From: Okeania sp.
GTDB lineage: Bacteria; Cyanobacteriota; Cyanobacteriia; Cyanobacteriales; Microcoleaceae
Assembly: GCF_035285525.1 (NCBI RefSeq)
Contig: NZ_JAYKGW010000173.1
Coordinates: 21,817-53,816, forward strand
Length of the DNA: 32,000 nucleotides
Direction of reading: 5' to 3'
The notes under the pieces are model-generated. The model saw only the letters and a program-made list of their open reading frames with translations, was not told the origin of the DNA and did not search any database. The translations under genes were made by a program, and so were the position numbers. Position 1 is the stretch's first letter. Each line of letters begins with the position of its first letter. Positions 2,613-31,613 of the stretch are shown here, piece by piece.

Positions 2613-5600
2613 ATGAATCCCAGTCCCGAACCACAAATTAATTATTTCCGAGAATGGACTAATAGCTGTGTTGATGACCAATTAATTAAGCTCAATGTTG
2701 TCCCTTTAGAAGGACAAGAACCTTATGAATTTTTATTTTATTCTGATGCTATTCCGCGACGCAATGATGGTCGAGTAACGAGCGAAATATTAAGGCGATA
2801 TGAACATATTGAGGAAGGTGGATGGTGGTGTTCTGGAATTGATTTATTGTCCGGAGAGGAGGACCTTTGGGGTTGTTTTAAGCCTAGTCAACCACGTCAT
2901 AGTTACGACGAAAAAAAGTTAATTAAATACGAACATCCTCCGAAGACTCCTACGAGTTTATTTGCTCTGAAAATTCCTCTACATTTATGGCAGAAAATAG
3001 CTGGTCGTTATCAATTAGAAATTCTTCGGGAAGATATCGATCATAATCAACCAGATTTGGGTTTTTGGCAGTGGTTTATGAAGCATCCTGAGATTCCTTT
3101 ATGTATTACTGAAGGAGCGAAAAAAGCGGGTGCTTTACTAACAGCATCTTATGTGGCTATTGCTTTACCAGGAGTATTTGGGGGATATCGAGTTTTGAGA
3201 GATGAATATGGGAATCGTATTGGCAAAGCAAATTTAATTCCTCAGTTAGAAAAGTTGATTAATAATCATCGAGAAGTTTATATTGTATTTGACCAAGATA
3301 CTAAACCGAAAACTATTAAAAATGTTAATGCTGCGATTAGAAAAACTGGATATTTACTGGCTAGAAAAGGATGTAATGTTAAAGTAGTTTCCTGGAATCC
3401 AGAGTTAGGAAAGGGAGTTGATGATTTAATCGCTAATCAGGGAAAAAATGTTTTTGATGAAGTTTATGAAAAGGCTTTACTTTTAGAACTTTGGAAAGCT
3501 AAATCATTTATTCGTCTCACATATCCTGTAAATTTGAGGGTTAATAGTCGTTATCTTTCAGAAGAGAATATTTTTAGTTCTTTAGGCAATAAGAATTTAC
3601 AGAAGTTAGATAATCTGGATTTAGCTTATAGTACAAATTTTCCAGCCAAACTTGTAGGGATAAAATCTGCTAAAGGAACTGGAAAAACTAAATTATTAGA
3701 AAAAATAGTTGCGGAAGCTGTAGCTAGGAATAAAAAAGTTTTAGTTATCGGTCATCGGGTACAGTTAGTACAAGAATTATGTCAACGTTTTGGATTGAAA
3801 TATATTACAGAAGCCAATTCAGAATCTCCAGATAATTTATTAGGTTTAGGTTTATGTATTGACTCTTTACATCCTAATTCCCAAGCAAATTTTAATCCAG
3901 AAACTTGGTCAGATGGAGTAGTAATTATTGATGAAATTGAACAGGTAATTTGGCATGGTTTAAATTCTAATACTTGTCGGCAAAATAGAGTAGAAATTCT
4001 CAGATGTTTTAAAACATTAATGCAAAATGTTTTAGGAGGAGTTGGTCAAGTATTTATAGCTGATTCTGACTTAAGCGATATTTCCATAGATTATTTAGCA
4101 GCTTTAGCAGGAATAAAAGTAGAACCTTTTATTATTCAAAATGATTGGTTGCCTGGAGAAAAAGAAGCTTGGCAAATTTTTAATTATCCAGAAACAACTC
4201 CCAAAAAATTAATAGCAGATTTACACAAACATATTTCTGAAGGTGGCAAACCAATGGTTTGTTTATCGGCGCAAAAATTAACAAGTAAATGGGGAACTCG
4301 TGCTTTGGAAGCTTATCTGAAAAAACAGTTTCCCCAGTTCAAAATATTGAGAATAGATTCGGAATCTTTAGCTGAACCAAATCATCCTGCTTATGGTTGT
4401 ATTAAATCATTAAATCAAGTCTTACCAACATACGATATTGTGTTAGCTTCTCCCTCAATTGAAACTGGAGTTAGTGTCGATATTCAAGGGCATTTTACTT
4501 CAGTTTGGGCAATTGCTCAGGGGGTGCAGGGAGCAACTTCTGTTTGTCAATCTTTGGGGAGAGTTCGTGAGAATATTCCGAGATATTTATGGGTAGCAAA
4601 TTCTGGTTTTAATAAGGTCGGTAATGGTTCGACTTCTATCACTTCTTTGCTCAATTCTGAAGAACGTTTGACTCAACTAAATATTAGATTATTACAACAA
4701 TCTGATTTTGATAGTTTGGACGATTTAGAAGTAAATTTTCAACCAGAATCTTTTTTGTGTTGGGCAAAAATGGCGGTACGTTTTAATGCGGGAATGAATA
4801 AATATCGAGAATCTGTTTTAGAATTTTTACAAAAAGAAGGGCATCAGATTAAAGAAATTTCTACAGAAGTTTTATCCGATAATTCAGAAGCAGAAAAATC
4901 ATCGGAAACTCCGATAGAAGTTAATAATTTCCAGGAAGTTATAGACACCGTAATTAAACAAAATTATCAGAGAGAATGTGAGGCGATCGCTACGGCGAAA
5001 AATATTAGTTTATCTGAGTATGAGAAACTCAAAAAAAGATTATCAAAACCAATTCAAAAACAACGGGAACAACGGAAATTTCAATTAATGTTACGTTATA
5101 ATATTCCTATAACTACTGAATTAGTTGAAAAAGATGATGAAGGTTGGTACGAACAGTTAGAATTACATTATTTTCTGACAGTAGGACGACCATATTTAGG
5201 AGCGCGAGATAAGGAAGTTGCCAAAAAATTGTTGGATTTAGGTAAAGGTAATATTTTTATTCCTGATTTTAATGATTGTTTATTAGGGGCAATTATTGGG
5301 GTAATGGAATTATTAAAAATCCCCTCGTTATTGAAGGATAAAAACCGGGAGTTGAAAAATATAGATCCAGATTTACAGTTGTTAGGAAAAACAGCTTTGG
5401 CAAATAGAAATGAAATTAAAACTATATTAGGAATAGGGTTAGCTGCTAGTTCGAGTCCGATTATAATTGTGCGACGTTTTTTAGAGAAAATTGGTTATAG
5501 TTTAGAATTTTTACGAACAGAAACTCATCAGAAAAAACGATTGAGAATTTATCGGATTGTTAATGCTGATGATGGTAGATTTGAAATATTTCAGCAATGG

Positions 5601-5639
5601 TTAAGTGGGGGGAAATTAGAGTCCAGTAGGGTGTGTTAG
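2613..5639 (+). CDS. Plasmid-type replication protein, CyRepA1-like (DUF3854/Toprim-like N-terminal domain plus P-loop helicase/NTPase domain)
   Basis: 1008-aa ORF. Toprim-like ITEGAKKAG (E167, nt 3111-3113) and acidic FDQD (nt 3288-3299). Walker A AKGTGKT (nt 3669-3689). Walker B VVIIDE (DE at nt 3930-3935). This architecture matches what I recall for cyanobacterial plasmid Rep proteins such as Slr7037 of Synechocystis pSYSA. The last 4 codons and the stop lie inside an inverted repeat. Confidence 0.7.
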   Translation: MNPSPEPQINYFREWTNSCVDDQLIKLNVVPLEGQEPYEFLFYSDAIPRRNDGRVTSEILRRYEHIEEGGWWCSGIDLLSGEEDLWGCFKPSQPRHSYDEKKLIKYEHPPKTPTSLFALKIPLHLWQKIAGRYQLEILREDIDHNQPDLGFWQWFMKHPEIPLCITEGAKKAGALLTASYVAIALPGVFGGYRVLRDEYGNRIGKANLIPQLEKLINNHREVYIVFDQDTKPKTIKNVNAAIRKTGYLLARKGCNVKVVSWNPELGKGVDDLIANQGKNVFDEVYEKALLLELWKAKSFIRLTYPVNLRVNSRYLSEENIFSSLGNKNLQKLDNLDLAYSTNFPAKLVGIKSAKGTGKTKLLEKIVAEAVARNKKVLVIGHRVQLVQELCQRFGLKYITEANSESPDNLLGLGLCIDSLHPNSQANFNPETWSDGVVIIDEIEQVIWHGLNSNTCRQNRVEILRCFKTLMQNVLGGVGQVFIADSDLSDISIDYLAALAGIKVEPFIIQNDWLPGEKEAWQIFNYPETTPKKLIADLHKHISEGGKPMVCLSAQKLTSKWGTRALEAYLKKQFPQFKILRIDSESLAEPNHPAYGCIKSLNQVLPTYDIVLASPSIETGVSVDIQGHFTSVWAIAQGVQGATSVCQSLGRVRENIPRYLWVANSGFNKVGNGSTSITSLLNSEERLTQLNIRLLQQSDFDSLDDLEVNFQPESFLCWAKMAVRFNAGMNKYRESVLEFLQKEGHQIKEISTEVLSDNSEAEKSSETPIEVNNFQEVIDTVIKQNYQRECEAIATAKNISLSEYEKLKKRLSKPIQKQREQRKFQLMLRYNIPITTELVEKDDEGWYEQLELHYFLTVGRPYLGARDKEVAKKLLDLGKGNIFIPDFNDCLLGAIIGVMELLKIPSLLKDKNRELKNIDPDLQLLGKTALANRNEIKTILGIGLAASSSPIIIVRRFLEKIGYSLEFLRTETHQKKRLRIYRIVNADDGRFEIFQQWLSGGKLESSRVC

Positions 5640-5769
5640 GCGCTAGCCGTAACGCACCGCTATTAAATTAATTGAAAAGTCATATAAGGAATTAATAATC
5701 GAGTAATCTGTAGGGTAGTTTAAGCATTCCTAAAAGATGGTGCGTTACGCTCCGCTAACACACCCTACT
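5625..5769. repeat. Long inverted repeat / MITE-like element, family 2 (AGTAGGGTGTGTTAG...ACGCACC arms)
   Basis: Left arm AGTAGGGTGTGTTAGGCGCTAGCCGTAACGCACC (from 5625) pairs with right arm GGTGCGTTACGCTCCGCTAACACACCCTACT (ends 5769). Related copies lie at 26308-26394 and, partly, at 28436 onward. Confidence 0.7.
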
Positions 5770-5902
5770 AGCTATAACTTTTGGAATTGATTCGCTTTAA
5801 TTTTATATTTTTCATGGCTGACTCAGGGTATGCTATCCTTATTTTATAACTAGATGAAAGTTAAGAGCAAATTCTAAATATATATTAGCAGAGGTAAAAT
5901 CA

Positions 5903-7096
5903 ATGACAACTAATATAGACATTATAAAAAATACAAGAATAGACATCATAAAAGATACAAGAGCTAATTGTTATTCTGCAATGGTTCAATTGAATGTAGC
6001 AGAATATTTAAAAATGGTAGAAAAAGTATTTAAAAAGAAAGGAGGTTTAGAAGGACAAAGAGACACTTTAAAAACAAGAACAGCTATTAGGACTCGCCAG
6101 AGAATGATTGATGATTTGAAAAAAGGAGCTATACTACCGCCAATAGTTCTAGGAGTTATTACTTCAGAAGAAGAGTTATCTACTATTGATAGATTAGATA
6201 GAAATGAATTACTAAATGTCATCAATAATCCTGAAAATAGCATATCTATCATTGATGGAATGCAAAGAACAACTGCTTTATATGAAGCTAAACAAGATAC
6301 TAATATTAGCGATAATAAAGTTCGGGTAGAATTTTGGATAGCATCTCAAGTAAATAGCTTAATCTATCGAATGTTAGTATTAAATACAGGGCAAATTCCT
6401 TGGAACTTGAAAAGACAAATTGAAACTGTTTTTCAAGCAAATTTGAAGGAACTAAAAGCAAAATTTCCAGATATAGATATTATCAAAGTTGATGACCAAG
6501 GAAAACGTAGAAATCCTCGTCAATATCATGCTAATAAAGTTATTGAGCTATTTCTAGTATTCGGTGCTAGAAAGGAAAAAGTTGACCTACAAGAGACATT
6601 AGCTGAAGAGTTTACTAAACAAGACTTTATAGAGTCAGTAGCTAATCCTGATTTTACAAATATATTCTATGAAGTAATGGGATATCTAGCTGACTTCGAT
6701 CTAGCTATATCTGCGTATAAAAATACAAATGAAGAGGGAGATTTTAAAGAAGGTAAAGACTTATTTAGTAGTCATTCAGCTTGTATTGGTTTTGTAACTT
6801 CTATTGCTATATATGTAAAAGGTAGACCTGGTAATGATTATGATTTAGAAAAACAAAATACAAGATGGAATAAAATAAAAAATAATGCTCATCAACTTTT
6901 AGAAAAACTAAAAAAAATGGAACCTATTGAAATAGCTGATTTTTTAGATTTTTCAACTCTTAATGAACTGATTAGCAGAAAAATAGGTAAACCTCATAAT
7001 TTTGAAAGAGAGTTTTTTTTAAAGGCTTTTAAATTATTGATAGAGGATAATTTTAGTGTTGAAACAATGACAGAATGTTGGAGAGCTTACGACTAA
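5903..7096 (+). CDS. ParB/Srx-fold protein of the DUF262/DndB-like type (DGxQR motif), with no attached C-terminal nuclease domain
   Basis: 397-aa ORF with GAGG 8 nt upstream of the ATG. Motif IIDGMQRTTALY (D118-R122, nt 6254-6268) follows GQRDTLKTRTAIRTRQRMIDDLKKGAILPPIVLG, the layout seen in DGQQR/DGQHR ParB-like domains. The C-terminal 250 aa are helical and unrecognised. The CDS call is confident. The family call is motif-level only. Confidence 0.6.
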   Translation: MTTNIDIIKNTRIDIIKDTRANCYSAMVQLNVAEYLKMVEKVFKKKGGLEGQRDTLKTRTAIRTRQRMIDDLKKGAILPPIVLGVITSEEELSTIDRLDRNELLNVINNPENSISIIDGMQRTTALYEAKQDTNISDNKVRVEFWIASQVNSLIYRMLVLNTGQIPWNLKRQIETVFQANLKELKAKFPDIDIIKVDDQGKRRNPRQYHANKVIELFLVFGARKEKVDLQETLAEEFTKQDFIESVANPDFTNIFYEVMGYLADFDLAISAYKNTNEEGDFKEGKDLFSSHSACIGFVTSIAIYVKGRPGNDYDLEKQNTRWNKIKNNAHQLLEKLKKMEPIEIADFLDFSTLNELISRKIGKPHNFEREFFLKAFKLLIEDNFSVETMTECWRAYD

Positions 7097-7103
7097 TACC
7101 AAT

Positions 7104-8192
7104 ATGTCTAGAAATATGATCGAAGCCAATAAATATATATTCAATCAATTAGCTAATTTTGTTGAAGAAAGCAAAATTGATGATACTTTTGATAGACAAA
7201 AAAAACGCTATATCGAAACTAATGATGAAGACAAGGAGTGGTTAAAAAAATTAAAAATAACCAACAAAAAATATCCAATTTTACCAAATTTTCAAACAGC
7301 ATCTTTTCAATATGGAGGTAATGATTATTTTGTAGCTATTGGTGTAAAGGAGAATTTAGAAATCAATCAAGAAGAATTTATTCAACCTCTAGAATTGAAT
7401 CCAGGTATATTTACGGCTTTATTATTTGAACTGAAAATATCGGTCGATCAAAAAGCTAATCCTCTTGAAATTACAAATGATTTTTTTAATGAAGGTGGAT
7501 ATAATTTCCATCAAGTAAAAGATTTTTTTGAACCAATCTTTGTTTATAAAATTCCTAAAAATTCTCCTTTTTTAAGTTTAGATAACATAAATATTGCCAG
7601 AATTTCTGGTTTCTATGCTGTTAAAAGCAGCCAAGTAATATCATTAAAATTTTTACCAAATACTCTAAATGAATTTGAAAAGCTATTCATTGAAGGTTCA
7701 AATAATATCCCCTATGAAAGTTTACTATTTAGCTTAGTTTCTGTTTCCTGGAAATATTCATTTCTTGATATTTACAGATGTATTGAAAGATTATTTCCTA
7801 TATCAGCATTAGAAGACTTACACAAAAAATTGAAGATTGAATACTCTCTCCTAAACTTTGCTGATGATATTGAGTCTTCTATTGGTTGGAGACCAAAAGA
7901 AAATGAAGCATTGAATAAACTGATTAATAATAATAGTTCTCTTGAAATAGCACGTCAGATACTTCGCGAAGTCAAAGATAATATTGAAGGTACAGAAAAG
8001 GGAAAACTTGGAGATTTTGTCTATGGCATTCGTAATTCAATAGTGCATTTTAGACCTGCCACAAAGCAAAATAAATTAGATGATAATAATTGGGATATGT
8101 TAATCTATTCATCTTTGCTAATTATTGAATATTGGTATGAAAAATATGAACCACAATTTACAGATAGTAATTTTAATGATAATGAGACTTAA
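7104..8192 (+). CDS. Hypothetical protein with a C-terminal HEPN-like domain (Rx4H motif), predicted RNase effector
   Basis: 362-aa ORF starting 7 nt after the upstream stop, so probably an operon. Near the C-terminus GDFVYGIRNSIVHFRP gives R310-N-S-I-V-H315 (nt 8031-8048), the RNxxxH form of the HEPN Rx4-6H motif, within a predicted helical region (aa ~195-350). The N-terminal ~190 aa are unrecognised. The CDS call is confident. The HEPN assignment is tentative. Confidence 0.5.
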   Translation: MSRNMIEANKYIFNQLANFVEESKIDDTFDRQKKRYIETNDEDKEWLKKLKITNKKYPILPNFQTASFQYGGNDYFVAIGVKENLEINQEEFIQPLELNPGIFTALLFELKISVDQKANPLEITNDFFNEGGYNFHQVKDFFEPIFVYKIPKNSPFLSLDNINIARISGFYAVKSSQVISLKFLPNTLNEFEKLFIEGSNNIPYESLLFSLVSVSWKYSFLDIYRCIERLFPISALEDLHKKLKIEYSLLNFADDIESSIGWRPKENEALNKLINNNSSLEIARQILREVKDNIEGTEKGKLGDFVYGIRNSIVHFRPATKQNKLDDNNWDMLIYSSLLIIEYWYEKYEPQFTDSNFNDNET

Positions 8193-8196
8193 TTTT

Positions 8197-8242
8197 GTAA
8201 GCATTCAGCTATTAAATGAACCTGAATGCTTACTTGATTTTA
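8197..8242 (+). terminator. Rho-independent terminator-like hairpin after the ParB-like/HEPN operon
   Basis: Perfect 12-bp stem GTAAGCATTCAG (8197-8208) / CTGAATGCTTAC (8222-8233), followed by TTGATTTTA, beginning 5 nt after the stop codon. The GTAAGCATT..AATGCTTAC hairpin is also a dispersed motif (see 14679-14704 and 10829-10855). Confidence 0.55.
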
Positions 8243-8289
8243 ATACTAAAAAGCACCAAAAATTACCTTTTCCATAACACCTTAAAACC

Positions 8290-8882
8290 ATGCAAATTCA
8301 ACAAAAAAAAACTACACTTCCATCGAATATCTAAACCTTAAAACTAACTCACAAGAACGACACGAATACATTAATGGTGAAATTATTCATATAACTTCTG
8401 GAACTCCAAATCATAATCAAATTGCCCTTAACTTCAGCGCATCTTTAAATTTTTCCCTTAAACGTCAACCCTATCGAGTTTTTGTTTTAGACCAACGACT
8501 TTGGATTCTGAAAAAACGCATTTATACTTATCCTGATGTTATGGTAACTCCAGGAAATTTACAACTACAACAAGGAAGAAAAGACACCATTACCAACCCT
8601 ATAATAATTGCTGAAGTTTTGTCAAATTCAACTAGAAATTATGACAAAGATGAAAAATTTTCAGCTTATCGAACTATTCCTACATTTCAAGAATATCTAC
8701 TCATAGACCAATACACAATTCCAGTCGAACAATATCACAAAACTGCTCAAAAAAAGTGGATTTTTTCAGAATATAACGAACTCGAAGAAACTATCTCTCT
8801 CAACTCAATTGATTTTCAAATAACCTTGGCAGATATTTACGATCAAGTTGAATTTGAAATAATAGAAAACAGCGATAATTAG
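8290..8882 (+). pseudogene. Uma2-family (DUF820) endonuclease gene interrupted by a frameshift in an A9 run
   Basis: ATG at 8290 (MQIQQKK) runs into a stop at 8332. The -1 frame continues ..KKNYTSIEYLNLKTNSQERHEYINGEIIHITSGTPNHNQIALNFSASLNFSLKRQPYRVFVLDQRLWILKKRIYTYPDVMVTPGNL.. into track ORF 8541-8882. Together these give a typical full-length Uma2 sequence. The frame change maps to A9 at 8303-8311. Confidence 0.8.
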
Positions 8883-9057
8883 AAATATTGAAGTTTACAT
8901 AGCAATTCTAAATTATTCGTGAAAAAAATTGTAGATATTTGGTCTTTAAATTTCACGAAATGTCTATTTGATATGTGATTTAATTTTAGCATAAATATTG
9001 ATAATTAGAGATATTTTTAATTATTAATTATTCATTATAAATTACCAATTATTCCTA

Positions 9058-14659: not shown

Positions 14660-14704
14660 AAACAAAGCTAGATATAAAGTAAGCATTCCGTAGGAAATGC
14701 TTAC
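14660..14704 (-). terminator. Hairpin terminator candidate immediately after the MAPEG gene
   Basis: GTAAGCATTCC-GTA-GGAAATGCTTAC (14679-14704) abuts the stop codon at 14705-14707. On the minus strand it is followed by TTTATATCTAGCTTTGTTTTTTG. Confidence 0.5.
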
Positions 14705-26622: not shown

Positions 26623-27540
26623 TCAATTATCAATTATCCATTTTTCTAAGTCTGGTATTGTTGCTAAATCAAAAATTTCTTCACCTAAAATATCTAATTT
26701 TTCCAAAGATAATTGCTTAATCTGAGTCTCAATTTCTGGAGGTATTTCTCCAAATTTTCGGCGAACTTGACGTAAGATTTGTTTCACTACTCCAATACCA
26801 ATTCCTTCTTCCCTTCCCATTTCTATCCCTTCGTTTCTGGGGAAACTAATTTGTCCTTGTTTATCTCTCATCAACTTTTCTTGTGGCTCTACTTTCTCTG
26901 ATTCTTTATTGTTTAAGTTGGGTCGATTTGCTATCTTTAATGCTGCTTCTATTTCTGAGACTTCTGCCAATGATTTTGGTATTACTTCTAAATTTGGAGC
27001 CGATTTAATAAAATATATCCATTTATCGCTGAGGGTTTCTAATTCTAATAATTCTTTTTTAAATTTGGGTAATTCTACAAATATTAACCTTAATTCATCT
27101 TCATAATCTAACAATTCTGTCTGTTCTTTAAGTCTGAATTTAGTAATCATTTTATCAATATGCTCAAATAAAACAAAATCGGTGATGGTTAAAACTATAA
27201 AAGGTGGGAACATTGTATAATCTTGTATTGCATCTAATTGATTTCCATAAGCTTTAGCTAAGTTATAAATTTCTGGTTTTTCAAAATCATCTACCTTCAA
27301 TATTTGCATTTTAATAACGATGGTATAACCATTATCTAAAAGTGCTTTAATATCAAAATAAGTGTCTTTCATAGTGTTAGTAACTCCAGGGTTATAGGGG
27401 TTAATGATTTTGAGGGATTGAATAACATTTTGATTGTTATAAACTATGGCATTGAGAAAGCTAATGAGGATTTTTTGACTGTGAACAGAACCAAAGATTT
27501 TTTTAAAGGCAAAGTCGGTTTTGGGACTGATAAATTTCAT
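26623..27540 (-). CDS. Rpn-family recombination-promoting nuclease / putative transposase (PD-(D/E)XK, TIGR01784-like)
   Basis: The 305-aa ORF begins MKFISPKTDFAFKKIFGSVHSQKILISFLNAIV, the characteristic N-terminus of this family. It also has ..DTYFDIKALLDNGYTIVIKMQ.., ..FVELPKFKK..L....DKWIYFIK and a C-terminal GIEMGREEGIGIG segment. The last codons (KWIIDN) are encoded by TTATCAA heptamers. Confidence 0.85.
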   Translation of the reverse strand: MKFISPKTDFAFKKIFGSVHSQKILISFLNAIVYNNQNVIQSLKIINPYNPGVTNTMKDTYFDIKALLDNGYTIVIKMQILKVDDFEKPEIYNLAKAYGNQLDAIQDYTMFPPFIVLTITDFVLFEHIDKMITKFRLKEQTELLDYEDELRLIFVELPKFKKELLELETLSDKWIYFIKSAPNLEVIPKSLAEVSEIEAALKIANRPNLNNKESEKVEPQEKLMRDKQGQISFPRNEGIEMGREEGIGIGVVKQILRQVRRKFGEIPPEIETQIKQLSLEKLDILGEEIFDLATIPDLEKWIIDN

Positions 27541-28889: not shown

Positions 28890-31613
28890 CTATTTTTTCC
28901 ACACAAAATAAATCAACAAAAATCCCATCGCACCTACCCCCAACAACATACCAGGTTCGGGTAAACTGACATTATCCCACAAATTATTCGGCTCCGTCAA
29001 CACCCCCTTACCATCCTCAACTTGACGCTGAAAACCATCTCCCCCTACTTCCCCACCTTTAAAAGCTTCCCGTTGTTCATCATTAACCAAAACTATCATG
29101 GAAGAATAGGGAGTAACTATATTGTAGGTATTAGCGATCGCCTGCATACCATCCACAGTTGTCAAACCCAAAACCAACTGTTGAGCTGCTATAGGAGCAA
29201 AACTATCATCTTTTTTTGCCTCCAGAAATTTTCTTTCCATAAACCAAGCATACCCGTCTGCTACACTAATAACGGATTTTCCCAACTTTGATTTTGCCGT
29301 TATTTCTGGGAATATCTCACTCAACTTAGTCGCCACACCACCCCCACTTTGTTGAATAAATTTTAAAGTGGCATCATCATAAGCAGGTGGCATCCCCCCC
29401 AAATGCAAGAACCACACGGGAATAGATAATTTCGGCATTTGTTGACTACCATCTGAAAGTTCGTAACCACTTTCATCTGTCACTAATATTACCCGACTGT
29501 AGGGAGTATCCCCCCGTAACTGGAGAAACTGTTTCAGCATTTCTGGATAGGAGAGTCTCCGGAAATATGGAACTTTCTTAGCATCAAACTGACTAATATC
29601 ATCAAAGCGTTCGGGTGGAAAAAGCGCATTAGTCAGATATATGTCAGCATCACTATTAGCAAAACTCAGGTCTCCCAAACCATTTTTCACTAACCAGTCA
29701 ATATTCCGTTGCAGTTGCCAGGTTTTTGCTTTTATGCTATAGGAAGTATCGATAACTATGGCAAACCGTTGACTTTCTGGCAAAAATGTTTCTGGTGTTT
29801 CCAAAGGTTGAGCTGAAATCTGATATCCATTGGGAAAATTTACCTGATGTGGTTGGGGAGTGATATCGTTGACAGCGGTAAGACTGGGTGGCAACCATGT
29901 TTCTCCATCACTTCTGACAGATTTACCGTTGTATATTCGTTTAGTTTTGCGATTCCAAAATATATTGTGTTTTTCTATCAACTGTGGTAAGGCAAAGGTA
30001 TAATTTTCTGCCATGGTTTGATAGGTTAACCACAGGTGCATTTGTGTTGGTTGCTCTGGGTTATTTTGGGGTTGTGTTGCTGTTAGTTTTGGGGGTATGG
30101 GAAATACTCGCAAACGATATTGTCTAGGTCCGACTTTTTCGATGATAGCGGGCTCGACTGGGCGTTCTCTTCTGACTTGAGAGTTATAAACTTTTTGTGC
30201 TGCTCCATGGGGAGAAACTTGAAAGGGAAAACGGGAGGCGCGGTTGTCAGTATCACCTAACCAAATACCTGTAATAACTGCACTTTTTGGGAGGGTAAAA
30301 TAATAGATAATTTCTTGAGGTTGAAAGGTTTGATTTTCATAAATTTCATATAGTTCTATATTTGCCCAATCTCCATTTTCGGCAACTGTAATTTCTTGGT
30401 TTTTCAGCCAGACTTTTTGTTGCCCAATATTTAATAATCCAGCTTGAAATTCATCTAGATTTGCTGTAGATTTAATGGCTTTGAGAATAGCTTTTTGTTC
30501 TCCTTTTTGAATAGGAGTATCGAAAAATTCTCTATAGAGTTTTGCTGCTTTTTCTTGATCTTTATCGTCACCTTGATATAAGAATGGAGAAATGAGATTA
30601 TTAAAGCAATTTTGTAATGTTTGATTAATAGGTTCGGGCAAACCAAGTGTATTTTTGTACATCATCCGAATTTGATTATTTTCGGCAGCGGTACCTAAAT
30701 AACGATATGAGGATAAATAGGCATTAACCAATCCATTTTTAATTAAATCTGAATTAGCTAAAAGTTCTTGGCGATCGCTCTCATCTCTAATTGGTAAATC
30801 TAACATTTGAAAAGTTACAACTTGAGGTTGTTGGTTAAATGAAACTAACAGAATCATCCAAGCAGTCATTAAACCAATAGTTCCTTGAAATGTCCGTTTA
30901 TGCCCATATTGAAAAGCAAACATTCTCAAGATTTTTTGCCCAGAATGAACGTATAAAGTCGCCATTGCTGAAGGCATAAATACAAACAAGGTTCCTGCGA
31001 TTATAAATAAGAATAAAGATAAAAGGATGGAAAATATACCCAGAGGATGATTATTTATTTGATAAATAATTGTTTGAACCCAGTCAAAAGAGAAAAATTC
31101 TCGTAACAAAATTATGGGGAATGGCAGAGCATAAAATAGGAGTAAGATTCCCAGATATAAACCAGTCAAAAACATGAAAATATGAGCAAATAATTGTAAC
31201 CATGCTATGAAGGGATTTTGATGAGCATAACCATAGAAAAGTTCTAGAGCAAATGCGATAATACTAACTAATATTGTACCGAAAATTAAAGAGCTAGCTG
31301 GAGTAAGTTCTCGTAGCACAAATAAACGCAATAAACATAGTAAAAATAAAGGAGCTTCGACACCATAAAATAATCGAATTAATTCTAAAGGTTGTTTCCG
31401 AAAACGCCAGCCTCCAAAAATAGTAGAAAAAGTGGGAATTGCGATTATGCCGATAAAAGTAATCAAAAATTGACTGGGGATTAAACCAGAAAATGTATCC
31501 TCAATTAGAGAATATCCAAAAGTTGGTAATATCCAGAAATAGACAAATCCTAAAAATGCGATATTCCAAATCCAAAATATACCGTAATAGATGCAAAAAT
31601 ATTTATTTTTCAT
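28890..31613 (-). CDS. PEP-CTERM integral membrane protein with a VWA-like domain (TIGR02921-like)
   Basis: 907-aa ORF. The N-terminal ~260 aa hold about 8 TM helices. A MIDAS-like DxSxS sits in AIVIDTSYSIK (nt 29736-29750). The C-terminus VSLPEPGMLLGVGAMGFLLIYFVWKK has PEP, a TM helix and a basic tail, which is the PEP-CTERM/exosortase sorting signal. Confidence 0.7.
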   Translation of the reverse strand: MKNKYFCIYYGIFWIWNIAFLGFVYFWILPTFGYSLIEDTFSGLIPSQFLITFIGIIAIPTFSTIFGGWRFRKQPLELIRLFYGVEAPLFLLCLLRLFVLRELTPASSLIFGTILVSIIAFALELFYGYAHQNPFIAWLQLFAHIFMFLTGLYLGILLLFYALPFPIILLREFFSFDWVQTIIYQINNHPLGIFSILLSLFLFIIAGTLFVFMPSAMATLYVHSGQKILRMFAFQYGHKRTFQGTIGLMTAWMILLVSFNQQPQVVTFQMLDLPIRDESDRQELLANSDLIKNGLVNAYLSSYRYLGTAAENNQIRMMYKNTLGLPEPINQTLQNCFNNLISPFLYQGDDKDQEKAAKLYREFFDTPIQKGEQKAILKAIKSTANLDEFQAGLLNIGQQKVWLKNQEITVAENGDWANIELYEIYENQTFQPQEIIYYFTLPKSAVITGIWLGDTDNRASRFPFQVSPHGAAQKVYNSQVRRERPVEPAIIEKVGPRQYRLRVFPIPPKLTATQPQNNPEQPTQMHLWLTYQTMAENYTFALPQLIEKHNIFWNRKTKRIYNGKSVRSDGETWLPPSLTAVNDITPQPHQVNFPNGYQISAQPLETPETFLPESQRFAIVIDTSYSIKAKTWQLQRNIDWLVKNGLGDLSFANSDADIYLTNALFPPERFDDISQFDAKKVPYFRRLSYPEMLKQFLQLRGDTPYSRVILVTDESGYELSDGSQQMPKLSIPVWFLHLGGMPPAYDDATLKFIQQSGGGVATKLSEIFPEITAKSKLGKSVISVADGYAWFMERKFLEAKKDDSFAPIAAQQLVLGLTTVDGMQAIANTYNIVTPYSSMIVLVNDEQREAFKGGEVGGDGFQRQVEDGKGVLTEPNNLWDNVSLPEPGMLLGVGAMGFLLIYFVWKK

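Follow-up and report, generated by a model that had tools for sequence, protein, structure and literature searches.

A diverged member of the Dazbog defence family in Okeania sp., with a candidate HEPN-like ribonuclease site in DzbB

The dzbA-dzbB pair and its relation to Dazbog

We analysed a stretch of 32,000 nucleotides of the cyanobacterium Okeania sp. (contig NZ_JAYKGW010000173.1, positions 21,817 to 53,816), hereafter the window, in which two adjacent genes at 5903-8192 form a diverged cyanobacterial member of the anti-phage system Dazbog. We term them dzbA and dzbB after the components of that system. A preliminary description, made from the sequence alone, had presented them as an uncharacterised defence or abortive-infection module that couples a ParB-fold protein to a HEPN-like one. 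The two open reading frames are as it described them, on the same strand with a spacer of 7 nt, and the sequence AGAGG stands 9 nt upstream of the ATG of the first gene. The features of the pair are the following (RNase, ribonuclease; NTPase, nucleoside triphosphatase; pLDDT, predicted local distance difference test score).

5903-7096, plus strand: dzbA (397 aa), a ParB-like protein of the DUF262 NTPase type with a helical C-terminal domain and no nuclease domain
6050-6061, plus strand: EGQR motif (E50-G51-Q52-R53), the first conserved ParB/DUF262 motif of DzbA
6254-6268, plus strand: DGMQR motif (D118-R122, codons GAT GGA ATG CAA AGA), the DGxQR of the ParB/DUF262 fold, predicted to bind nucleotides
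7104-8192, plus strand: dzbB (362 aa), with an alpha/beta N-terminal domain of unrecognised family and a helical, HEPN-like C-terminal domain
7701-8159, plus strand: C-terminal domain of DzbB (residues ~200-352), a putative HEPN-type RNase domain of eight helices (pLDDT 90.7)
7773-7787, plus strand: Y224-R-C-I-E228, an upstream motif bearing an invariant acidic residue, at the end of helix 216-228
8031-8048, plus strand: R310-N-S-I-V-H315, an Rx4H motif and predicted catalytic site, in the context YGIRNSIVH

The first gene was matched along nearly its whole length by the DzbA model of PADLOC (PDLC03835, E = 1.7e-57, 193.5 bits, residues 14-394 against positions 6-383 of 393). A hypothetical protein from Okeania sp. 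at NCBI has exactly the sequence of its product (100% identity). The only other matches in the scans of Pfam, PADLOC and NCBIfam were to GmrSD_N (Pfam DUF262, PF03235; E = 1.4e-5, 25.8 bits, under the cutoff of 33.2) and to DGQHR (NCBIfam, E = 5.7e-4). These matches, together with the invariant DGMQR, support the earlier reading of this protein as one of the DUF262/ParB type. The motif at D118-R122 had been correctly located; it is part of the string IIDGMQR, and S115, I117, D118, G119, M120, Q121 and R122 are all invariant in an alignment of 15 DzbA homologues (38-81% identity). The same alignment shows G47, E50, G51, Q52 and R53 to be invariant, and we infer that the EGQR motif is equivalent to the N-terminal QR motif of DUF262 proteins. 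DGxQR, which contacts the beta and gamma phosphates (PMC12065111), is also present in the plasmid and Bacillus homologues of DzbA. The C-terminal half of the protein is conserved and helical.

The preliminary description had found no DUF1524 or HNH-type nuclease domain in gene 1, and this held: no nuclease domain was recognised in these scans, and neither protein of the pair matched DUF1524 in Pfam at E ≤ 1. DzbA shares with GmrSD, BrxU and SspE the N-terminal ParB-like DUF262 domain with DGxQR, but these enzymes carry a DUF1524 His-Me nuclease, whereas DzbA has none and is accompanied by a separate protein with an RNase-type motif. We therefore rejected a type IV enzyme of the GmrSD/BrxU/SspE kind. 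A classical ParB of a ParABS partition system, which the preliminary description had named as a possible refutation, was rejected as well: the protein matches DUF262, DGQHR and DzbA models only, and the pair adjoins a CyRepA1 and a Uma2 gene, with no ParA in the neighbourhood (parS was not searched for).

The second gene was matched by the DzbB model of PADLOC (PDLC03836) with E = 2.9e-8 and 31.5 bits over residues 135-315. The model also matched 93 of 110 representatives of its family, which are 21-40% identical to the query (best E = 5e-14); other PADLOC matches among these representatives were to Cas13a and to PtuB, once each. The N-terminal ~190 aa, for which no family had been recognised earlier, remained without one in the Pfam, PADLOC and NCBIfam scans, and NCBIfam gave no match for gene 2. 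Dazbog protects against phages (Millman et al. 2022, 10.1101/2022.05.11.491447). Membership of this validated system supports the proposed defence or abortive-infection role of the pair, and means that the term uncharacterised did not stand.

We compared the locus with the Dazbog of a Bacillus cereus plasmid (NZ_CP053952, locus L011), which scores as canonical (DzbA 399 bits, DzbB 163 bits) and has the same gene order. In both, dzbA is followed by a co-directional dzbB, DzbA is a DUF262 protein of ~400 aa with DGxQR and no nuclease domain, and DzbB has ~360-390 aa, with LY..IE and Y..RN.IVH motifs in a helical C-terminal domain (LYQVIES and FYKVRNTIVH in B. cereus). The two DzbA are 27% identical (tblastn, residues 30-245) and match the same hidden Markov model (HMM) full-length. 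The two DzbB are further apart, with PADLOC scores of 163 vs 31.5 bits and N-terminal ~200 aa that are not alignable. Accordingly, hhalign of the DzbB family against B. cereus DzbB aligned the C-terminal domain only (probability 78%, E = 1.7e-5). A search for annotated canonical proteins of this kind, with the B. cereus DzbB as query, retrieved only three, and Pfam domains were absent from all of them. The Okeania pair further differs from the Bacillus one by its marine filamentous cyanobacterial host, by a co-travelling Uma2 gene, and in being known from its genes alone. Since the N-terminal domain of DzbB cannot be aligned, while its C-terminal domain is shared and DzbA is well conserved, we regard the locus as a diverged subtype. 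The clade of cyanobacteria and proteobacteria may form a subtype of its own, set apart by another N-terminal domain in DzbB and, for Okeania and Trichodesmium, by the Uma2 nuclease gene that accompanies the pair.

An even more distant pair was observed on plasmid LBPp4 of L. plantarum (L012, 3935-6039). There, a gene of the DzbA family (PADLOC E = 7e-46) precedes one for a 336-aa protein which escaped the DzbB model but has the motifs LYRILE, a counterpart of Y224-E228, and LRNKAFH. A gene for a type I HsdR adjoins the pair. The present Dazbog models probably detect too few of the diverged DzbB partners.

The two genes form an obligate pair. A scan of one genome per species identified 43 loci in Cyanobacteriota, Desulfobacterota, Bacteroidota, Bacillota and Pseudomonadota, 39 of which had room for an upstream gene. 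DzbA was encoded directly upstream, on the same strand, in 37 of these 39 loci (five phyla), i.e., 36 full-length genes and one partial gene cut by a contig edge (L013). Three of the 39 had no full DzbA upstream: L023, where dzbA appears disrupted, and two loci with partial or weak matches. The co-occurrence that the preliminary description had proposed to check is thus present. All ten loci that we inspected singly, which include conjugative plasmids, had the same arrangement (L001, L003-L010 and the B. cereus L011; L009 is on the same contig as L014 of the scan). In the disrupted locus, from Microcoleus sp. AR_TQ3_B6 (2851-3642), positions 12-272 of the dzbA HMM stand alone in one frame, followed by a gap of 359 nt and an intact dzbB; the copy may be in decay.

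Most homologues of the two genes are from cyanobacteria. The ratios of nonsynonymous to synonymous substitution rates (dN/dS), 0.23-0.37 for dzbA and 0.26-0.42 for dzbB, indicate that both genes are under purifying selection. DzbB evolves faster (dN 0.15 vs 0.10) and has fewer matches in the databases (134 vs 2157).

The C-terminal domain of DzbB

The AlphaFold2 model of DzbB has a mean pLDDT of 90.9. In it, the Rx4H motif ends a helix (302-314) that is followed by a loop and by a long helix (327-352). The motif had been correctly read, with R310 encoded by CGT at 8031-8033 and H315 by CAT at 8046-8048. Its conservation, on which the earlier reading depended, is strict: the only invariant residues among the 110 DzbB sequences are Y224, E228, Y307, R310 and H315, and N311 is conserved in at least 90% of them. 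The pattern R[N/C]xxxH is kept in all 109 full-length representatives. A profile search with the C-terminal domain retrieved 759 cluster representatives, of which the best 150 mostly have the same architecture of ~350 aa; some of these 150 are shorter and probably partial.

The hallmarks of HEPN domains are an Rx4-6H motif that ends helix 3, a polar residue after the arginine, and an upstream acidic residue (Anantharaman et al. 2013, PMC3710099). As far as the predicted structure goes, DzbB has all of these features, i.e., an Rx4-6H motif at the end of a helix, the polar N311 after the arginine, and the acidic E228 upstream, although the context of E228 is not the typical Ex3[KR] form. The best Pfam match of the domain was to HEPN_Apea (E = 0.0047, residues 234-344, 17.8 bits, below the cutoff of 24.4). 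The relatives of DzbB gave similar sub-threshold matches to HEPN-type models: HEPN_Apea in 9 of the 110 representatives and in 5 of a set of 38, pEK499_p136 in 2 of the 38, Ribonuc_2-5A once and the PADLOC Cas13a model twice. Outside the HEPN-type models, sub-threshold matches in the set of 110 were to MauJ (three sequences; clan unchecked) and to four unrelated families, once each. Two homologues are named in UniRef as 'Apea-like HEPN domain-containing protein' and 'ApeA N-terminal domain-containing protein'.

ApeA is a single-gene HEPN tRNA anticodon nuclease of ~580 aa, with three domains, which forms decamers and is activated by deoxydinucleotides (bioRxiv 10.64898/2026.01.26.701840; Gao et al. 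2020). ApeA and the Bacillus Dazbog are both defences of the abortive-infection type, and HEPN_Apea is the best, sub-threshold, match of the DzbB domain. Yet ApeA works alone, whereas DzbB has 362 aa, is paired with DzbA and does not match ApeA_NTD1. An identity with ApeA was therefore rejected.

The preliminary description had mentioned ParB-HEPN gene pairs from surveys of HEPN families. Such pairs do figure in the survey of Anantharaman et al. 2013, where HEPN genes of the MAE_28990 family share an operon with a gene for a ParB fold, and DNA methylase genes are often close by (PMC3710099). The Dazbog loci resemble these operons in the pairing of a HEPN-like with a ParB-fold gene and in the C5-methyltransferase genes found near three of them. 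They do not belong to that family by our searches: gene 2 did not match Pfam MAE_28990 at E ≤ 1, and its 38 and 110 relatives did not match it at E ≤ 0.01.

A possible mechanism and its alternatives

Experimental data on Dazbog come from Bacillus. The B. mycoides system is abortive-infection-like and becomes toxic when the cytosine-5 methylase of phage SPR is co-expressed; phages that escape it have lost the SPR 5-methylcytosine (m5C) methylase, and infection at high multiplicity of infection (MOI) leads to culture collapse or growth arrest (Stokar-Avihail et al., 10.1101/2022.08.27.505566). Mutation or deletion of the DUF262 gene abolishes defence (PMC10952713). Reviews of 2025-2026 still list the mechanism as unclear, and our literature search found no paper connecting Dazbog with HEPN. 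The DUF262 domain of GmrSD, BrxU and SspE detects modified DNA and functions as an NTPase switch, and in related DUF262 proteins the helical domain behind it binds DNA (PMC10952713; PMC12065111). In Menshen (NsnABC), a ParB-DUF262 protein with a helical domain of DNA-binding type has been proposed as the sensor, and most of the effectors are predicted to be RNases (PMC12065111). This resembles what we suggest for Dazbog, except that Menshen has an ABC-ATPase transducer (NsnB) and effectors of BECR or inPIN fold, whereas Dazbog has no ATPase gene.

In the model with the best support, DzbA would be the sensor and DzbB the RNase effector. DzbA would act as a ParB/DUF262-type NTPase, through its EGQR and DGMQR motifs, and its helical C-terminal domain would be likely to bind DNA, by analogy with other DUF262 proteins. 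It would sense invading or modified DNA, e.g., m5C-methylated DNA, and its nucleotide-dependent switching would activate DzbB. The C-terminal domain of DzbB would be a HEPN-like, metal-independent RNase, probably acting as a dimer, with R310 and H315 as catalytic residues supported by N311, E228 and Y224/Y307. The resulting cleavage of RNA would arrest the infected cell, i.e., cause abortive infection. The variable N-terminal domain of DzbB may contact DzbA or choose the target. To the joint explanation, namely a diverged Okeania Dazbog (dzbA-dzbB) that works in this way, we give a probability of about 0.65. Taken alone, HEPN-type RNase chemistry in DzbB is unproven, and the conserved motif and the predicted structure make it quite probable. 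The most specific version, where DzbB is a true HEPN RNase both in this clade and in the validated Bacillus Dazbog, and where the ParB/DUF262 NTPase reads DNA or its methylation and directly licenses the RNase, has in our opinion even odds.

Several observations weigh against this explanation. The match of gene 2 to the PADLOC DzbB model is weak and partial, and the N-terminal domain has no alignment to canonical Bacillus DzbB. No curated HEPN cutoff was reached, the top Pfam scores being 17.8-18.1 bits vs 24.4. Foldseek searches of the PDB with the full DzbB model gave at best E = 0.56, with kinases and other unrelated folds, and searches of the PDB and BFVD with the C-terminal domain, modelled by itself, gave nothing at E ≤ 0.001. 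HEPN chains were among the non-significant matches (4nqf, E = 1.6; Csm6 5yjc, template modelling score 0.41, E = 4). Sequence profile searches of the PDB, starting from the alignments of 38 and 110 sequences, returned chance matches or nothing. The negative structure search is weak evidence, because the HEPN domain of ApeA is itself structurally diverged, with insertions (bioRxiv 10.64898/2026.01.26.701840); the Foldseek result neither confirms nor refutes a HEPN fold. The HEPN claim of the preliminary description is thus upheld as to a conserved RNxxxH motif in a helical C-terminal domain, and lacks a Pfam HEPN match above threshold and a significant Foldseek match. Regarding function, Dazbog activity is known from Bacillus only, and the role of the cyanobacterial pair is a prediction from its genes. 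Cyanobacterial genomes are heavily methylated, and for this reason the trigger in Okeania may differ from that in Bacillus. Finally, the deletion of dzbB could not be transformed, 'possibly due to toxicity', and was grouped with three antitoxin deletions (Millman et al., 10.1101/2022.05.11.491447). This opposes a simple arrangement of DzbA as sensor and DzbB as toxin, and suggests that DzbA alone is harmful and is restrained by DzbB.

It is because of this failed deletion that we keep a model with reversed roles, although we think it unlikely. DzbA would then be the toxic effector, acting, e.g., by NTP-dependent DNA clamping, nicking or nucleotide depletion, and DzbB its regulator or antitoxin, whose R/H site would serve sensing, RNA binding or a secondary activity. 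Such a model agrees with the stronger conservation of DzbA (in dN and in database matches, as given above), which is common for the core enzymatic component of a system, and with the classification of ParB-fold domains as endoDNases by Anantharaman et al. (PMC3710099). It accords poorly with the role of DUF262 in GmrSD, BrxU and SspE, where it is the sensor and NTPase and a separate DUF1524 domain does the cutting (PMC10952713, PMC12065111), and with the lack of a recognisable nuclease domain in DzbA. Moreover, the invariant residues of DzbB form a catalytic-looking Y/E/Y/R/H set, which would be unusual in a mere antitoxin.

A type IV restriction-like attack on modified phage DNA, where DzbB is a DNA nuclease or nickase and there is neither RNA cleavage nor host suicide, seems to us highly improbable. 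The DUF262 relatives GmrSD, BrxU and SspE do restrict modified DNA, Dazbog depends on phage DNA methylation (10.1101/2022.08.27.505566), and C5-methyltransferase or restriction-modification genes lie near several Dazbog loci. But no DUF1524, HNH or other DNase domain was found with Pfam, PADLOC or NCBIfam, the conserved motif of DzbB is of the RNase (HEPN) type, and the collapse or growth arrest at high MOI and the toxicity with the methylase indicate abortive infection (10.1101/2022.08.27.505566).

Mobility and surroundings of the pair

The dzbA-dzbB pair is part of a larger block shared with Trichodesmium (L009), for which the features downstream of dzbB are relevant.

5862-8886, plus strand: dzbA-dzbB-uma2 block, 84.7% identical over 3044 bp to Trichodesmium L009 6786-9750 (blastn)
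8197-8233, plus strand: hairpin with perfect 12-bp arms (8197-8208 and 8222-8233) and a loop of 13 nt, a possible, lineage-specific terminator
8290-8882, plus strand: frameshifted gene of a Uma2-family nuclease (Pfam Uma2, E = 1.7e-14, C-terminal part)

Two other Okeania loci (L007 and L008) share only 5829-8177 (82%), and a Trichocoleus locus (L010) shares 5939-8158 (71%; blastn). The genes flanking the shared block differ in every genome compared, hence the pair moves as a cassette. The cassette is AT-rich, as the preliminary description had noted: dzbAB has 28.3% GC vs 34.1% for the whole window, and ranks among the lowest 1.2% of windows of equal size. In our explanation, the locus arrived as a small AT-rich cassette, to which the Uma2 gene also belongs in this lineage. 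The absence of HIP1 sites from the pair, also noted earlier, is true and statistically uninformative, because the probability of finding none in 2.3 kb is ~0.49 (there are 10 sites in the window). We looked for direct repeats resembling attachment sites and for a tRNA gene beside the cassette, and found none that was convincing. Promoter matches in the spacer upstream of dzbA (5640-5902) were no commoner than in shuffled sequence.

The hairpin that follows dzbB has the perfect 12-bp stem described earlier, starting 4 nt after the stop codon rather than 5. It folds with -16.6 kcal/mol (z = -5.5; none of 200 shuffles folds as well). A consensus terminator scan did not call it at 8197-8233 because its loop exceeds 8 nt. 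It is inside a segment of ~46 nt (~8203-8248) that is missing at the orthologous Trichodesmium locus, and therefore does not belong to what is conserved in the operon. A related stem, GTAAGCATT...AATGCTTAC, was observed at 14678-14704; this second hairpin, whose stem is nearly identical (GTAAGCATTCC...GGAAATGCTTAC), is just beyond the 3' end of a MAPEG gene. The two may represent a small dispersed palindromic element or a recurring type of terminator in this genome.

The Uma2 gene was previously described as decayed. It is indeed downstream of the pair and broken, but decayed is an overstatement for a single 1-nt deletion at ~8304/8305, in CAACAA(C)AAAAAAA, relative to the intact Trichodesmium copy of 197 aa (L009 9153-9746). 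The deletion could be a recent mutation or a homopolymer sequencing error. The stop codon of Uma2 is precisely where the block shared with Trichodesmium ends, which indicates that in this lineage the gene moves together with dzbAB. Among the PADLOC candidate families, Uma2 matches PDC-S03.

Upstream of dzbA, the gene at 2613-5639 encodes a plasmid replication protein of the CyRepA1 family (NCBIfam NF042913, 543 bits, cutoff 200), which substantiates the plasmid-type replicase of the preliminary description. The least likely alternative that we considered is that the pair is a maintenance or addiction module of this replicon, toxin-antitoxin-like or related to partition, rather than a phage defence: in its favour are the position directly downstream of the replication gene, the relatives on plasmids of 15-19 kb in Roseobacter, Sulfitobacter and Xylophilus, the toxin-antitoxin-like problem with the dzbB deletion and the ParB fold of gene 1, but the shared homology block begins at 5862 and leaves out the replicase, the copies in Okeania, Trichodesmium and Trichocoleus are surrounded by unrelated genes of the chromosome, none of them a replicase, the pair in the window does not adjoin a ParA gene, gene 1 matches DUF262/DGQHR models with no ParB partition family reported, and an anti-phage phenotype has been demonstrated for Dazbog (10.1101/2022.08.27.505566, PMC10952713). 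It is the exclusion of the replicase from the cassette and the chromosomal location of most copies that weaken this reading.

A distant Dazbog pair was found in a dense defence island on a metagenome contig of the European Nucleotide Archive (NODE_447; L004, 1-9503). Its DzbA has an N-terminal extension of ~95 aa, and the gene order is Druantia type IV (DruE, DruL4, DruF4 and the cytosine methylase DruM), Dazbog, a Vsr endonuclease gene and HicAB. We rejected the methylase as a third component of Dazbog, because it is part of the adjacent Druantia type IV set (DruE/L/F/M). C5 methyltransferase genes were within a few kb of Dazbog at three unrelated loci, a count given without a background rate: this metagenome contig (L004, 5109-6515), plasmid pTB3 of Roseobacter (L005, 6935-8092) and the B. 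cereus plasmid (L011, 1-1440), which has Dcm and an NgoPII-type enzyme. Their proximity is notable because Dazbog is reportedly triggered by a phage m5C methylase; it could be simple clustering in defence islands.

Further out, the window contains ordinary chromosomal genes, including a CCA-adding enzyme, a TsaB-like gene and a sulfate permease, and the locus is therefore not a classic defence island. Upstream of the CyRepA1 gene there are a direct repeat of 61 nt (1700-1760 and 1968-2028; 89% identity, spacing 268 nt) and two repeats of 21 nt (2241-2261 and 2283-2303; spacing 42 nt), possible iteron- or origin-like elements of a replicon that is either integrated or resident. Two genes on the minus strand are unrelated to dzbAB: one of an Rpn-family recombination-promoting nuclease or putative transposase (26623-27540, TIGR01784, E = 1.5e-35), and one of a PEP-CTERM integral membrane protein (28890-31613, TIGR02921, 956 bits).

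The Okeania locus itself is a routine annotation of an already validated defence system. As a family, Dazbog was validated first in Bacillus and occurs widely among filamentous cyanobacteria (Okeania, Trichodesmium, Microcoleus, Nostocales), where it moves as a compact AT-rich cassette. The association of a system that is triggered by m5C in Bacillus with a cyanobacterial genome that probably is methylated as well, and with C5-methyltransferase neighbours elsewhere, raises the question of how self-activation is avoided. The more useful product of this analysis is a testable mechanistic hypothesis for Dazbog that names the residues to mutate. The HEPN-like Y/E/Y/R/H site is invariant throughout the family and present in the canonical Bacillus DzbB, which suggests RNA cleavage as the output of abortive infection. 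If DzbB is indeed a HEPN RNase, this would supply the missing effector mechanism of Dazbog.

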